This document shows, in pieces, positions 5,308 through 27,492 of a stretch of DNA of 27,673 bases. The notes under the pieces were generated by a model. The model saw only the letters and a program-made list of their open reading frames with translations. It was not told the origin of the DNA and made no database searches. Origin of the DNA: an uncultured Thermoplasmatales archaeon (lineage in GTDB: Archaea > Thermoplasmatota > E2 > DHVEG-1). Location: the NCBI GenBank assembly GCA_964554985.1, contig CAZKQS010000002.1, positions 311 to 27,983 of the forward strand, read 5' to 3'. The translations under genes were made by a program, and so were the position numbers. How positions within the stretch are numbered: the stretch's first letter is position 1; each line of letters opens with the position of its first letter.

Positions 5308-6591
5308 TCATATCATATTAAATTTTAAAATTCTAAATATTTTTTGGAAGAGTATGAATTGTTCGAAATAACAATTTTCATTGATTTTACCTTTTGAAGT
5401 AGTTCCTTTCACTTCAACTTTGATTTGTTTCCAATCACTTTCAACTCCCCACTGATCTCTTGCAACTACATTTACATATTTTGTACCCTTTGATGAAAAT
5501 TTGTGATTACAATCTATAGTTATCTTATTAGACATAAATATTTGAGTTTCTAATTTAGTCCATGTATCAATATTATAATCATTATCCCAGTCAAAACCTG
5601 CCTGCACATAATCACGATATTCGTAAATATTTGATGAATATATCTTATCTAAATCTACAACATCTACTGAAAAGGTTATGTCTCTATCTTTATTTGCCTC
5701 ATAATGATCCTTTTTAGGATTGCATGTTGGAGCTACTTCTGAAAAGGTAATAGAATCTTCTGTCATTTGGGATATTAAAATCAGATTATAAATAAATCTT
5801 CTAGCATTACGTACATATCTATCTTTATAAAGGCTCACAACAATTTTTCCAAGATTTTTAAATGGCTCGTCTACCCAATCAGGATGATCCTGGGCTAGTT
5901 CACACCATGCTATGTAATACCAGCAGGGCATTAAAAAAGGCCAAAAAAGCAACATAGTTATAAAAGCTGCAATGTAATTTCCCCATAAAGGAAATATTTG
6001 TTTAATAGGATCGGCCCACCTCCTAGAAAACTCTCCAATCTTTTTTACCCTCATAGATATCTTAGAGTATTCTTCCTCATCGATTTCGTTTGATTCTGAT
6101 AACTCTGCAGCTTGACTTGCTTTTTCATCATAAAGTTCAATAAAATTATCAAGATTATCTTCAGTCATAATCAAATCTTGAAAATCCTCTAAAAAATAAT
6201 CATTCCTTAAACTTTGAATATCTTGGATTATTCTTTGAACACTAAATGTTTTTTCAACATCAAAAAAGTCCTCTGCAAGCTGTAAGTTTTGAAAATCAGA
6301 GTATATAAAATCAATTATTAAGCCTTTATTGTAATAAAAAGCATCTAAAAAATCATCGTCTTCAAGTAGATCATATAAAAATTCTAATAAAAAAATTATC
6401 CAATCTGGATTCATATTAGACGTAAGTTCGTAAAAATTATTAAAAGATTCAAATTCATAATCTTTTTTTGATTGTTTATCAAAATTCTCGACTTTTTCTT
6501 TACCTGAAATAGGAATCACAGTTACTTGAAAAATCAGGATAAATATCACAATAAAACTTATCCCAATTTTTGTAATTCTTTTAGTTAACAT
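5308..6591 (-). CDS. secreted protein: acidic helical domain + hydrophobic segment + PKD-like domain + KxK tail
   Basis: Signal-like N-terminus, AGFDWDND..WT and RDQWG..SDW PKD-like motifs. Homologous to 6630..7964. SD AGGTG. Confidence 0.85.
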   Translation of the reverse strand: MLTKRITKIGISFIVIFILIFQVTVIPISGKEKVENFDKQSKKDYEFESFNNFYELTSNMNPDWIIFLLEFLYDLLEDDDFLDAFYYNKGLIIDFIYSDFQNLQLAEDFFDVEKTFSVQRIIQDIQSLRNDYFLEDFQDLIMTEDNLDNFIELYDEKASQAAELSESNEIDEEEYSKISMRVKKIGEFSRRWADPIKQIFPLWGNYIAAFITMLLFWPFLMPCWYYIAWCELAQDHPDWVDEPFKNLGKIVVSLYKDRYVRNARRFIYNLILISQMTEDSITFSEVAPTCNPKKDHYEANKDRDITFSVDVVDLDKIYSSNIYEYRDYVQAGFDWDNDYNIDTWTKLETQIFMSNKITIDCNHKFSSKGTKYVNVVARDQWGVESDWKQIKVEVKGTTSKGKINENCYFEQFILFQKIFRILKFNMI

Positions 6592-6629
6592 TATTTACAC
6601 CTTAAAAAAAATAAAAAAGAGTAGTAGGT

Positions 6630-7964
6630 TTATGGTTGATTTATAACATTGATATTTTTTTGTCCAAGAAATCTTTGTATAAAGTTGTTTATCAAAGATA
6701 ACTTTTCCAAAATCGATGAAAAAGGCAATATTTTACTTTTCCCGTTGGTAACATCTACCTCTATTTTATTTGACCATTCACCTGTAGCGCCCCAGTTGTC
6801 CCTTGGTAAATATCTCACAACATACTTACCTTTTTTTGTAAATTTATGGCTTGTTTTAATCAAAGTATTTTCACCATAGTTGTTATTTAATTTTGTCCAT
6901 TCATCTACTTCTTTGTCTCCATTCCAGTCCCAACCAACCTGAATATAATCTCTATACATTTTGATGCCATTATCACTAATTTTATCTCTATCTACAACTT
7001 TTGCACTAAAATCAACGTTTGTATTAACTTTTGCACTAGATTTACCAAAAATTGACAGGGCAGTTGGTGCTGTTTCCCCAGTTTTGTAATTATCACTTGA
7101 CCATATTTCTGTAATAATTATAATTTCAAGCACTTCTTCAAAAGCTTGTCCAAGGTATCCTCCATTAATTGCATATATAAGCATCGCTGGAGGACCAATA
7201 ACTATCAGACCATAAATACCTAAAACTCTTTTTATATCATCTAATTCTTCTCTAAGTTCTTCTTCTTGCTCATATGCATCAGCACAGCCCTCAATCAAAA
7301 CTAGATATGCAATAATCGGCCCGAATAATATTATTGTAATATAATTAGCTAGAAATAATCCGCCAGGCAATAATGATAAAGGTATGGCATAAATATGTGC
7401 AATAGATCTTATTATATAAGCAATGATCTCAATCAAAGGATGTAAACCAGATGCATCTTCCATACCTGCTGTATATAAAAACTCTAAAAATTCCCCAGTT
7501 TCTTCTGAACCTGTATCATTTAGTTCATCATATGTATCTGGTACCTCTAATAATTCCTGTACATAATTTAAGATATTCTCTCCTTCAGCGTTTTTTATTC
7601 TCTGTCTTAAAGTATTGGTATCAAATGTTTCTTTAACATGGAAAAAATCTTCTATCATTTCCTTTCCATTAGGAAACTTATTTTCTATTTCATCTATTAT
7701 ATCTATACCTGCCTGTAAAAACTCTTCAATAAACTCATCATCTTTGAAAAGATCCCACAGAAAATCTATTAGATCTACATTTGTGTTTAATGGTTCTGTT
7801 CCAAGGTATTGATCTATAACTTCTTTTTGGTTAATTATCCCCTGATTTTCGCCTATAATTTCAACAGCCTTTTTTTGACTTATAGGAATTGCAATTGTAG
7901 ATGAAGATATAATGATCAATGCTACAAAAAATGCGATTCCTATTCCAATTTTTGTTTTTTTCAT
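6630..7964 (-). CDS. secreted protein, tandem paralog of 5308..6591
   Basis: Signal peptide MKKTKIGIGIAFF. Shares L.DL..DD.F, EDFF.V..TF, YRDY.Q.G.DW and HKF..KG with its neighbour. SD GGAGG. Confidence 0.85.
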   Translation of the reverse strand: MKKTKIGIGIAFFVALIIISSSTIAIPISQKKAVEIIGENQGIINQKEVIDQYLGTEPLNTNVDLIDFLWDLFKDDEFIEEFLQAGIDIIDEIENKFPNGKEMIEDFFHVKETFDTNTLRQRIKNAEGENILNYVQELLEVPDTYDELNDTGSEETGEFLEFLYTAGMEDASGLHPLIEIIAYIIRSIAHIYAIPLSLLPGGLFLANYITIILFGPIIAYLVLIEGCADAYEQEEELREELDDIKRVLGIYGLIVIGPPAMLIYAINGGYLGQAFEEVLEIIIITEIWSSDNYKTGETAPTALSIFGKSSAKVNTNVDFSAKVVDRDKISDNGIKMYRDYIQVGWDWNGDKEVDEWTKLNNNYGENTLIKTSHKFTKKGKYVVRYLPRDNWGATGEWSNKIEVDVTNGKSKILPFSSILEKLSLINNFIQRFLGQKNINVINQP

Positions 7965-26067: not shown

Positions 26068-26145
26068 TCTATCCCGTATTTAGGTTTTATTTTATAAAAA
26101 ATTGATATTAAGATTTGGATTTTAGATAATTTAGATCAATTTTTC

Positions 26146-27492
26146 TTAGTAAACTATACCAATTTTTTCAGTAAATTGAGAAAGTTTTGGAAAAAATGTA
26201 AGGATCCTTTGAAATAAAGAATCCTCTAAAACTAAACTTTTTGATTTACAAACTGTAATTGGTAGTGTACAACTATCTGTTTCTCCTTGACTGTCTTCAA
26301 CAGTTAAACTAATTTGATATGATGTTTGAACTGTATAGGTATGCCCAATAGAAATACTACATTCACCTTTACTATTGGATGAAACAGTTTCAGTTATATC
26401 CTCTCCGGCACCCCAGTTTATTGTAAAAGTTAATTTTTCTTTATTTCGATCTCTTGCTGAAAAAGTATATGTTTCTTCTTCGAATTTTGAAGGACTACTA
26501 GATCCAGATATAGATGCATCTGTTGGTCCTACATTGTTTGAAACAGTAAACTCTTTTGTTGCCCAATCAGACCATGCGCCGTTTGAATCCTTTACTTTCA
26601 AAGAAACAGAATGAGTTCCTCCATTATTAAAAGTACATGTAAATTCAGTTGATGTCGATTCTTGCACTTCTCCATCTACTCTCCAAGTATAATCAATAAT
26701 TTGGTCTCCATCCGGGTCAGCTCCGCTTGCTTCAAATTCTACTTTCTCATTTTTAGTAGGATTTGATGGATCTGGACCTGAAATACTAGCAGTTGGTTTT
26801 CTTGTATAGGTAAGCTCTAGTTTTGGACGATATTGTCGACCTTTCTCAGATGACCAAAAACTGAGATATTCACTGTTTTCCCAGCCCCAATCACCGCTTA
26901 CATCTCGACTAGATCTTAAACAGAACTTTGTTAGCTTGTTCCCACTCTTTTTAATCCAGCTTATGCCGTCACTATTAAGAGTTAAAACATTTTGTTTTGG
27001 TGAACTATCGCTGAATTTGAAATTTCTTGAATTAAAATTATTCACACCATTTCCACTATAAAGCGTGTAATCATAATCTCCTAACTCAAGATCATCATGG
27101 GGAAAATTACCTCCATTCTGAACAAATATGTCAAAATGTTGACCTCCTTTTTCAAATTCTTTATATCTGCCATATAATGTTAATTTTGCAGATATGATAT
27201 GAAGATTTTCGTTTAATTTATCAGCAGTATTAAAATATAGATAACCTCTTTTTACAACTACATCATTTGCATGTCCTGGTACAAGAGCTACATGATCCTG
27301 ACCAAAACAAATATGATTGTTTTCTTTAAAGATTCCATCTGAATCAGCTTCAGATGCAGTTCTAGCAGAGTTATAGGATGATTCATGTTGATTTACTGGG
27401 CAAAATTCGTAATTTTCAAGCTGTCCGTCATTATTTAGGCTGTAAAAAATTTCAGTTTGTGCACCAGATGTCGTTTTTAAACAACCAGAAGA
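26146..27492 (-). CDS. surface protein with DNRLRE/CBM96-like domain, two PKD domains and KxK tail; native N-terminus missing
   Basis: RGYLYF..IISAKLTLY..FWSSEKG..RPKLELTY, then PKD motifs (ASGADPDGDQIIDYTW; FTINWGAG). No signal peptide because the upstream frame is hexokinase-like. Confidence 0.75.
   Translation of the reverse strand, partial: SSGCLKTTSGAQTEIFYSLNNDGQLENYEFCPVNQHESSYNSARTASEADSDGIFKENNHICFGQDHVALVPGHANDVVVKRGYLYFNTADKLNENLHIISAKLTLYGRYKEFEKGGQHFDIFVQNGGNFPHDDLELGDYDYTLYSGNGVNNFNSRNFKFSDSSPKQNVLTLNSDGISWIKKSGNKLTKFCLRSSRDVSGDWGWENSEYLSFWSSEKGRQYRPKLELTYTRKPTASISGPDPSNPTKNEKVEFEASGADPDGDQIIDYTWRVDGEVQESTSTEFTCTFNNGGTHSVSLKVKDSNGAWSDWATKEFTVSNNVGPTDASISGSSSPSKFEEETYTFSARDRNKEKLTFTINWGAGEDITETVSSNSKGECSISIGHTYTVQTSYQISLTVEDSQGETDSCTLPITVCKSKSLVLEDSLFQRILTFFPKLSQFTEKIGIVY

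Follow-up and report, generated by a model that had tools for sequence, protein, structure and literature searches.

Tripartite C-terminal sorting signals comprise the LPXTG-sortase, PEP-CTERM-exosortase, GlyGly-CTERM-rhombosortase, MYXO-CTERM-myxosortase and PGF-CTERM/archaeosortase A systems (PMC11980579). The tail described here was noticed in six proteins of a window of 27,673 nucleotides (the whole stretch of DNA analysed) from an uncultured Thermoplasmatales archaeon. It resembles PGF-CTERM (TIGR04126/TIGR04125) and the other tripartite signals in that many unrelated Sec-exported proteins carry it as a short tag at their very C-terminus, in dozens of copies per genome, and in being restricted to a lineage and marking only part of the secretome. 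It differs from them in the order of its parts: instead of a signature motif, a TM helix and a basic cluster, the basic residues come first and are followed by two short non-spanning helices. We know of no cognate enzyme for it. The window's genome encodes archaeosortase A (ArtA, TIGR04125; 120.9 bits, G000:C77:2306-3043), and other proteins of that genome end in PGF-CTERM-like tails (TPGF, TM and basic residues; judged by eye); the new tail is therefore a second tag in this genome.

Exported enzymes of the Escherichia coli PBP5/PBP6 type are anchored by a C-terminal amphipathic helix. The new tails, which are non-spanning and charged, would work similarly, with a short C-terminal helix keeping a Sec-exported enzyme on the membrane's outer face and no dedicated sorting enzyme. 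The PBP5/PBP6 anchors are single, poorly conserved helices of high hydrophobic moment, whereas the canonical tail is a sequence-conserved helix-kink-helix with a moment not above that of shuffled sequences. In type IX secretion the C-terminal domain (CTD) is a beta-sandwich of about 80 aa acting at the outer membrane, a membrane that archaea lack. Like the CTD/PorU system, the tail forms the C-terminal part of many secreted hydrolases, in genomes where C25 peptidases are abundant; unlike it, the tail shares no sequence match with the CTD (searches of Pfam and NCBIfam gave no such match in the window tails), and C25 is present in many tail-free Thermoplasmatota families.

In marine sediments, MBG-D-like Thermoplasmatota rank with the most common archaea, and they are believed to live by degrading proteins outside the cell. 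To our knowledge, there is no account of how they keep their exoenzymes from diffusing off.

Motif, position and distribution of the tail

The tail family was real, large and absent from catalogues. Its canonical form consisted of P-[RK]-x-[RK], a short spacer, FLxRFLE..FPxLxxLL and a stop codon. Tagged proteins had an N-terminal Sec-type signal peptide, variable catalytic or binding domains and usually a PKD/Ig-like domain. Behind these came the basic hinge (P/T-[RK]-x-[RK]), a spacer of a few residues and a pair of short helices with a Phe-Pro kink between them; FLxRFLE..FPxLxxLL formed the core of this helical part, and the stop came next. Homologs of the 24331 protein terminated in the canonical motif, and 29/30 of the profile matches among them ended <=10 aa from the C-terminus. 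Among 1.84 billion representative proteins there were 770 matches (E <= 1e-3), and the C-terminal end was <=4 aa away in 146 of the best 150. The closed relative CP070712.1 (G251) had about 80 copies, with all 82 of its tail ORFs carrying the tail <=13 aa from the end, 48/82 inside a PKD-linked cluster and 34/82 outside it. The strict C-terminal placement expected in the preliminary description was thus borne out, as was the occurrence of the tail on exported proteins of many architectures, most often behind a PKD-like domain and also behind low-complexity linkers, beta-helix and CarboxypepD_reg domains.

Pfam and NCBIfam had no model matching the tail. The comparison with NCBIfam CTERM models proposed earlier gave no curated match (at E <= 1 to 10), and the motif was not spelled out in the literature searched. 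Canonical tails kept specific Pro, Arg, Glu and Gly positions, and their mean pairwise identity was 0.38 vs 0.40 for the adjacent PKD domain; the conservation of specific residues was more suggestive of a protein recognising the tail than of generic binding to lipids.

Profile matches were obtained in 25/33 genomes of the window's GTDB family (f1) vs four single marginal matches in 217 other Thermoplasmatota genomes, f1 thus accounting for 25/29 genomes with matches. As had been proposed, the tail was lineage-specific, being limited to one GTDB family of Thermoplasmatota. The carriers, Thermoplasmatota from sediment, bear the label 'Thermoplasmatales archaeon' and resemble MBG-D/Thermoprofundales. 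Canonical matches numbered 0-1 in the window's genome and 2-3 in two 94%-complete genomes of the same genus, whereas other genera had 7-29 and CP070712.1 about 80. GC content was near-equal in the window's genome (32%) and in CP070712.1 with its canonical tails (31.3%); base composition was therefore not the cause of the degenerate tails. Within the window's genus, mean pairwise identity was 0.19 for the tail vs 0.32 for PKD. Sequence constraint on the tail is apparently relaxed in this genus, with length, position, basic hinge and helicity kept and the motif largely decayed.

The six tails of the window

The coordinates and peptide strings reported earlier were right for all six tails (Table 1). 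Each began with K-x-K, immediately behind the final beta-strand of an Ig/PKD-like domain, and extended over 28-38 aa to a stop codon; the hinge columns aligned with canonical P-R/K-x-R/K. The count of five signal peptides plus one truncated N-terminus also stood: by a crude hydropathy rule rather than a trained predictor, four were called directly (ORFs 5308, 6630, 7989 and 24331) and one through the N-terminal piece of a split gene, and ORF 26146 had none because its N-terminus falls at the contig end.

Table 1. Tails, split-gene piece and context genes of the window (positions in the window).
Position	Strand	Feature	Remarks
24331..24447	-	Tail of 578-aa NosD/beta-helix + PKD protein (ORF 24331-26067)	Clearest member in the window
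26146..26247	-	Tail of DNRLRE + PKD protein (ORF 26146-27567)	Clear member; frame open to contig end
5308..5394	-	Tail of 427-aa secreted protein (ORF 5308-6591)	Resembles the tails in position and composition; not recognised by profile
6630..6740	-	Tail of 444-aa secreted paralog (ORF 6630-7964)	
7989..8093	-	Tail of 483-aa secreted CarboxypepD_reg-domain protein (ORF 7989-9440)	Lowest-scoring of the six by sequence
21830..21943	-	Tail ending ORF 21830-22360	ORF is C-terminal piece of frameshift-split gene, about 805 aa
22561..24270	-	N-terminal piece of split gene (C-terminal piece 21830-22360)	With signal peptide; from three-frame translation
9512..10201	-	Double winged-helix (HTH_24/ArsR-type) regulator	Pfam; context, outside the tail itself
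18545..19333	+	YhfC-family intramembrane metalloprotease	PF10086, E = 1.5e-30

Every column of the 24331 tail could be aligned with canonical tails; it had a KSKK hinge, then helix 1 (about 24391-24423), an FP kink and helix 2 (about 24346-24387). The 26146 tail retained FP in its core (LFQRIL..FFPKL) and had Pfam PKD domains upstream. The 5308 tail was preceded by a PKD-like domain, a PKD-like domain of the 6630 protein (residues 340-410) matched tail-bearing proteins of relatives, and PF13620 was found by Pfam upstream of the 7989 tail. Tails 5308, 7989 and 21830 had no Pro. In the split gene the frame changed between about 22561 and 22591. An 801-aa ORF of a same-genus genome (L082) was colinear with both pieces (BLAST): residues 7-562 of the N-terminal piece matched residues 4-555 of that ORF (47% identity), and the C-terminal piece was 72% identical as far as the PK-x-K hinge, beyond which the tails were unalignable.

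The six had been presented as copies of one signal. In a leave-one-out test, in which the tail profile was built without the sequence being tested and scored against decoys, this held statistically for 24331 (E = 0.0015; no decoy better) and 26146 (E = 3.5e-4; no decoy better), and did not for 5308 (E = 6.1; 21 decoys better), 6630 (E = 17), 7989 (E = 240) or 21830 (E = 120). With a purely external profile (A1), the two best tails of the window scored E = 2 and 13. For 5308, 6630, 7989 and 21830 homology cannot be shown from sequence; these tails fit the family by position, length, composition and helicity only.

A seed-free, rule-based test (an aromatic/hydrophobic non-TM tail of 20-38 aa behind a basic-x-basic motif) was passed by the 5308 and 7989 tails. 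It was passed by 20/99 signal-peptide proteins with no other TM segments, vs 30/747 non-secreted C-termini and 5/210 internal windows. The tail class was therefore about five-fold enriched on secreted proteins, with a persisting 4% background of look-alike C-termini, so that single weak tails could not be assigned with certainty. About nine tails of the window's genome still recognised one another and the external profile. A signal peptide was called on 16/19 tail ORFs of the genome, a figure that is partly circular.

Structure, candidate processors and probable function of the tail

In the AF2 model of the 24331 domain plus tail (pTM 0.69), the PKD domain (1-91) and a linker (92-99) were followed by two helices (100-110 and 112-125; pLDDT 68-85), with low pLDDT in the domain-helix linker. 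The 6630 tail was modelled as a single unbroken helix (about 6666-6722; H96-114; pLDDT 58-73) with no Pro kink. The domain preceding the tail shared its fold with, and was related in sequence to, PDB 4XED (phmmer E = 4e-16; Foldseek TM 0.86, rmsd 1.2 A), the PKD domain of an M14-like peptidase of Thermoplasmatales archaeon SCGC AB-540-F20. The match to this 99-residue chain covered the PKD part only and ended before the tail, and was therefore uninformative on the tail.

Maximum Kyte-Doolittle hydropathy over 19 residues was <=1.16 in all six tails, and none of them was therefore a TM helix. Together with the position of the basic residues before the hydrophobic part and the absence of a CTERM match, this agrees with the distinction drawn earlier from the tripartite archaeosortase signal. 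The description of the tail as an amphipathic helix found no support: the hydrophobic moment of the six tails (muH 0.5-0.8 over 11 residues) was not above that of composition-matched shuffles (p = 0.04-0.7), and the tail is therefore no textbook in-plane amphipathic anchor.

A C25 peptidase, by analogy with PorU, had been put forward as the processor. PF01364 was detected in 110/251 genomes, most of them tail-free, including whole tail-free families (f3 11/11, f6 7/7, f20 15/15), and also in tail-less genomes of the tail's own family; it had no specific link to the tail, and the proposal gained no support. The window had been described as having no processing enzyme, and the YhfC protease (Table 1) had been missed. 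As a processor it was considered and rejected, being found in 3/251 genomes of the phylum only and, among the other tail-rich genomes searched, in G116 only. In the phylogenetic profiling that had been suggested, both candidates thus failed to track the tail, and no enzyme gene was enriched beside tail genes in CP070712.1. That no processor was found fits a partner-free anchor, weakly.

Retention at the cell surface is the most likely function of the tail; no partner for it came to light. About an even chance is given to the reading that the six tails represent an uncatalogued C-terminal tag (two clear copies and four degenerate or uncertain ones) of one family-level lineage, acting in surface retention. 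After export, a hydrophobic, non-spanning helical hairpin would keep the enzyme on the cell surface, and archaeosortase-type cleavage would not be involved. The hairpin would either lie in the membrane's outer face, the basic hinge resting on lipid head groups, or dock onto a surface protein. The strict C-terminal position, the dozens of substrates per genome, the strong conservation across genera of specific polar and Pro/Gly positions in a tail as conserved as its neighbouring domain, the conserved dibasic-like hinge within a flexible linker (AF2) and the sharp family-restricted distribution expected of a tag-enzyme pair are also consistent with a cleavable signal. By a logic like that of the sortase, archaeosortase or PorU systems, a dedicated enzyme or receptor would read FLxRFLE..FPxLxxLL and cut at the hinge (P-[RK]-x-[RK]) or close to it; the protein would then be freed or covalently attached to a surface component. 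This is unlikely: there is no TM helix to bring the tail into the plane of an intramembrane enzyme, neither C25 nor YhfC is co-distributed with the tail, ArtA is present yet has PGF-type substrates of its own, the tail genes of the closed relative have no enzyme gene enriched next to them, and the retention of motif-decayed tails in the window's genus is hard to reconcile with strict recognition by an enzyme unless the partner was lost. It is somewhat unlikely, too, that the tail serves as address label in a new, family-restricted system of archaeal surface sorting with a dedicated receptor or processing enzyme, covering about 4% of the proteome (about 80 substrates per genome) with no transmembrane anchor, and that the window's genus would represent this system relaxing or being lost.

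The scarcity of canonical matches in that genus at an almost unchanged GC content, the larger drop in identity from PKD to tail than among canonical sequences and the ortholog pair that is unalignable past its hinge would also be expected of decaying remnants: the tag system would be undergoing relaxation or loss, and no specific function would be left to the four unrecognisable tails, or perhaps to any of the six. This is quite unlikely, given that 25-38 open codons were kept past the hinge in about 20 genes when about 8% of random codons are stops, that the tails remained hydrophobic/aromatic and predicted helical, and that about nine tails of the genome were mutually recognisable and matched by an external profile. 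Very unlikely is an intramolecular or oligomerisation element that would cap the preceding Ig-like domain, serve it as a propeptide or bundle exoproteins as a hairpin, and be no address label. It would agree with the prevalence of PKD-like domains before the tail (48/82 tail proteins of CP070712.1 in the PKD-linked cluster) and with the two helices modelled at moderate confidence, but low-complexity linkers, beta-helix and CarboxypepD_reg domains also precede the tail, the domain-helix linker has low pLDDT, and the solved PKD domain 4XED is stable with no tail.

With about 80 tagged secreted proteins per genome and no entry in domain libraries, the tag would be a simple sequence marker of the cell-associated exoproteome of this lineage; it would improve the annotation of thousands of 'hypothetical' metagenomic proteins and give a testable route to non-archaeosortase surface retention in archaea. 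The window further indicates that the tag can decay inside a genus with base composition unchanged, and that the obvious candidate processors do not track it.

The winged-helix regulator (Table 1) was located immediately upstream of the exoprotein cluster 7989/6630/5308/4753. In CP070712.1, an HTH regulator family was enriched (4/5; p = 0.002) beside tail genes, and an HTH_24 gene was also present within the exoprotein cluster of L094.

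Host proteins and membership of the six tails

The window (contig C2:311-27983) belongs to a 1.39-Mb, 71%-complete MAG with 32% GC (G000), whose PurB grouped with MAGs labelled 'Thermoplasmatales archaeon' (80-81% identity to CAZYFW01 and CP070712.1). All six tails, named here by their start coordinates, were reproduced by ORF translation, and the metzincin and the 1920, 4753 and 13624 proteins were confirmed to lack such a tail. Each tail began with K-x-K directly past the final strand of an Ig/PKD-like domain and was 28-38 residues long up to the stop codon. Signal peptides were found directly on four host ORFs, and that of the 21830 gene lay on its N-terminal piece. 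Together, its two pieces formed one gene of ~805 aa, broken by a single frameshift close to runs of G4 and T6; an uninterrupted 801-aa ORF in the same-genus genome G089 was colinear with both (47% and 72% identity), and the split reflects either pseudogenisation or misassembly. In five relatives the 6630 protein had no full-length ortholog, the match being limited to the PKD-like domain. The frame of the 26146 gene was open to the contig end, without a signal peptide, and its first ~40 residues carried a sugar-kinase-like AIDAGGTNFR motif, after which the sequence became that of an extracellular DNRLRE/PKD protein; the assembly may be chimeric at this edge.

Tails of this kind ended at least 12 further proteins on other contigs of the MAG, among the C-termini listed for proteins with crude signal-peptide calls. 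An iterated profile recognised 19 tails (E ≤ 0.01) and none of the reversed, internal or shuffled decoys; it was circular for its seeds, and leave-one-out profiles were therefore used instead. These recognised 24331 (E = 0.0015) and 26146 (E = 3.5e-4), with no decoy scoring better, and did not recognise 5308 (E = 6), 6630 (E = 17), 7989 (E = 240) or 21830 (E = 120). The preliminary description had treated the six as copies of one tail; 24331 and 26146 are demonstrable members, and membership of the other four would rest on position, length, composition and predicted helicity. With a seed-free rule (basic-x-basic, then 20-38 residues, at least 42% hydrophobic, at least three aromatics, not TM), a tail was found on 20/99 secreted non-TM proteins vs. 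30/747 non-secreted C-termini and 5/210 internal windows. The tail class is thus real, with enrichment on exported proteins.

Coordinates of tail hosts, regulators and sorting-related genes (positions without prefix are in the window; C5 to C212 are other contigs of the MAG; L094 is a metagenomic contig)
Feature	Coordinates	Strand	Content	Basis or remark
5308 host	tail from 5308	-	Divergent PKD-like domain	
6630 host	tail from 6630	-	Divergent PKD-like domain	
7989 host	tail from 7989	-	CarboxypepD_reg	Domain search
21830 host	21830-22360	-	PKD	Domain search; C-terminal piece of frameshift-split gene
21830 gene, N-terminal piece	22561-24270	-		
Frameshift of 21830 gene	22561-22591			
24331 host	tail from 24331	-	NosD/beta-helix + PKD	Domain search
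26146 host	tail from 26146	-	DNRLRE + PKD	Domain search; ORF reaches contig end
26146 gene, open frame	27480-27673	-		
Regulator	9512-10201	-	HTH_24	
Regulator	L094:2979-3518		HTH_24-type	
Small signal-peptide protein	4753-5301			
Small signal-peptide protein	L094:5936-6463			
Gene string	17563-21867			
Intramembrane metalloprotease	18545-19333	+	YhfC family (PF10086)	
Archaeosortase A (ArtA)	C77:2306-3043		TIGR04125	
PGF-CTERM-like tails	C14:8305-9453, C14:10591-12000, C20:252-1100, C186:506-1507			By eye
C25 paralogs	C5:16910-18952, C22:4132-6018, C123:1345-2808, C212:362-1807			

The canonical tail family

Metagenomic homologs of the 24331 protein carried a far better conserved version of the tail, with the canonical form P-[RK]-x-[RK], a short spacer, FLxRFLE, an optional xFPNx turn and FPxLxxLL(GL). 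A profile built from 26 canonical tails (A1) gave 30 matches among 120 homologs of the 24331 protein, 29 of which ended no more than 10 residues from the C-terminus. A search of 1.84 billion representative proteins with A1 returned 770 matches (library-wide E ≤ 1e-3); of the best 150, 146 ended within 4 residues of the protein end. The whole chromosome of the closed relative CP070712.1 encoded 82 tail ORFs (~4% of genes), slight underestimates because 21,500 bases of the sequence used read N; the distance to the C-terminus was at most 13 residues in all 82 and at most 3 in 73. The C-terminal position of the tail was strict in all three sets. As rare exceptions from public protein collections, P0126 (693 aa) and P0088 (602 aa) had an internal canonical motif, lying 247 and 31 residues short of the protein end, which may reflect read-through, gene fusion or miscalled stops.

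Among 251 genomes of the phylum, each at least 80% complete, tail matches were present in 25 of the 33 members of the window's GTDB family (f1), vs. just four single marginal matches (E 0.004-0.008) in the other 217, and the lineage specificity originally proposed was upheld. Pfam-A and NCBIfam (release 20) scans of the six window proteins and eight canonical tails, covering the CTERM models, yielded no match to the tail up to E = 10. The literature searched on the tail motif and on archaeosortase/Thermoplasmatota, including the Thermoprofundales genome paper (PMC6461988), gave no account of it. Within these libraries and papers the tag is undescribed, and it would be a variant of C-terminal surface-sorting/retention tags. 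The analysis adds its restriction to one GTDB family, the ~80 copies in a closed genome, the apparent GC-independent decay within one genus, the rejection of C25 and YhfC as processors and the demonstration of membership for just two of the six window tails.

Structure, degeneracy and possible function

The AlphaFold2 model of the 24331 protein end (34-row alignment, mean pLDDT 89) comprised a confident PKD sandwich (residues 1-91) that superposed on PDB 4XED, a low-confidence basic linker (92-99), and helices 100-110 and 112-125 with Phe-Pro between them (pLDDT 68-85). No chain among solved structures covered the tail, the PKD domain alone being covered. For the 6630 tail the model showed a single unkinked helix of low confidence. 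Over 19 residues, KD hydropathy peaked at 1.16 or less in all tails, so that no tail is able to span the membrane. The hydrophobic moment (0.5-0.8 over 11 residues) was not above that of shuffles of the same residues; 'amphipathic' is therefore fair as a description but does not distinguish the tail. The tail also followed low-complexity linkers, beta-helix and CarboxypepD_reg domains, and 34 of the 82 carriers in CP070712.1 were outside the PKD-linked cluster; it does not depend on the PKD domain. The tag is a helical, non-spanning element at the extreme C-terminus of exported proteins.

The canonical profile gave one weak match in the MAG and 2-3 in two 94%-complete same-genus genomes, vs. 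7-29 in other f1 genera and ~80 in CP070712.1. Tails in the same-genus genomes were equally degenerate. Within the genus, mean pairwise identity was 0.19 for the tail and 0.32 for the adjacent PKD domain; canonical sequences gave 0.38 and 0.40, respectively. One ortholog pair (21830 gene) had 72% identity as far as the hinge and was unalignable beyond. AT-rich drift was rejected as the cause, because CP070712.1 has its 82 canonical tails at 31.3% GC.

We infer, at about even probability, that the tail retains exoenzymes at the cell surface. It would partition into the outer membrane face with its basic hinge on the head groups or, as an alternative mode of retention, dock to a surface protein. 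Because canonical tails strongly conserve Pro, Arg, Glu and Gly at set positions, recognition by a dedicated partner or a cleavage step deserves serious consideration, but is unlikely. That the tails of the window's genus are partly decaying, as their divergence beyond the hinge might suggest, is rather improbable; the degenerate tails retain an open frame, the basic hinge, aromatic/hydrophobic composition and predicted helicity. Still less probable, and very doubtful, is an intramolecular or oligomerisation role.

Sorting systems, gene neighbourhood and candidate processors

The MAG encodes archaeosortase A (121 bits) and carries PGF-CTERM-like tails (TPGF, TM helix and basic cluster, judged by eye) on several other proteins, so that the new tail marks a separate protein set. 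Its polarity is the reverse of that of PGF-type tails, as its basic residues come first, and it lacks a TM helix. The lineage-restricted tag and the archaeosortase system of the MAG are independent of each other.

The C25 peptidase earlier put forward as a PorU-like processor was rejected: PF01364 was far wider than the tail (110/251 genomes), being present in all sampled members of three tail-free Thermoplasmatota families (f3, f6 and f20) and in tail-less f1 genomes. Nearly every f1 genome had at least seven matches. Several secreted C25 (gingipain-like) paralogs in the MAG shared a ..QQWxLxGDPSLKIGGY C-terminus, without the tail.

Genes adjoining tail genes in CP070712.1 were enriched in other exoproteins (33/84, p = 2e-8), and four of the five members of an HTH regulator family of ~325 aa ('fam6') adjoined tail genes (p = 0.002); no enzyme was enriched in this neighbourhood. 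The window had the same layout, an HTH_24 regulator heading the 7989/6630/5308 cluster, and so had L094. The recurrence of HTH_24-type regulators beside tail clusters suggests that exoprotein islands have their own transcriptional control. A small signal-peptide protein was rejected as a partner, the window and L094 proteins being alike in the signal peptide only. Subtraction of the MAG, only 71% complete, from CP070712.1 left too many candidate partners (436 proteins without a match, 96 of them with at least two TM segments).

The preliminary description had seen no processing enzyme in the window and overlooked a plausible candidate, a YhfC-family intramembrane metalloprotease within the 17563-21867 gene string. 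This family resembles CPBP proteases, one of which is described as sorting MYXO-CTERM proteins (PMC11980579). YhfC was present in just 3/251 genomes (G000, G116 and G037) and was therefore rejected as the tail processor. Its rarity in the phylum suggests that it was acquired horizontally, along with its YbjQ/ABC-2 neighbours.
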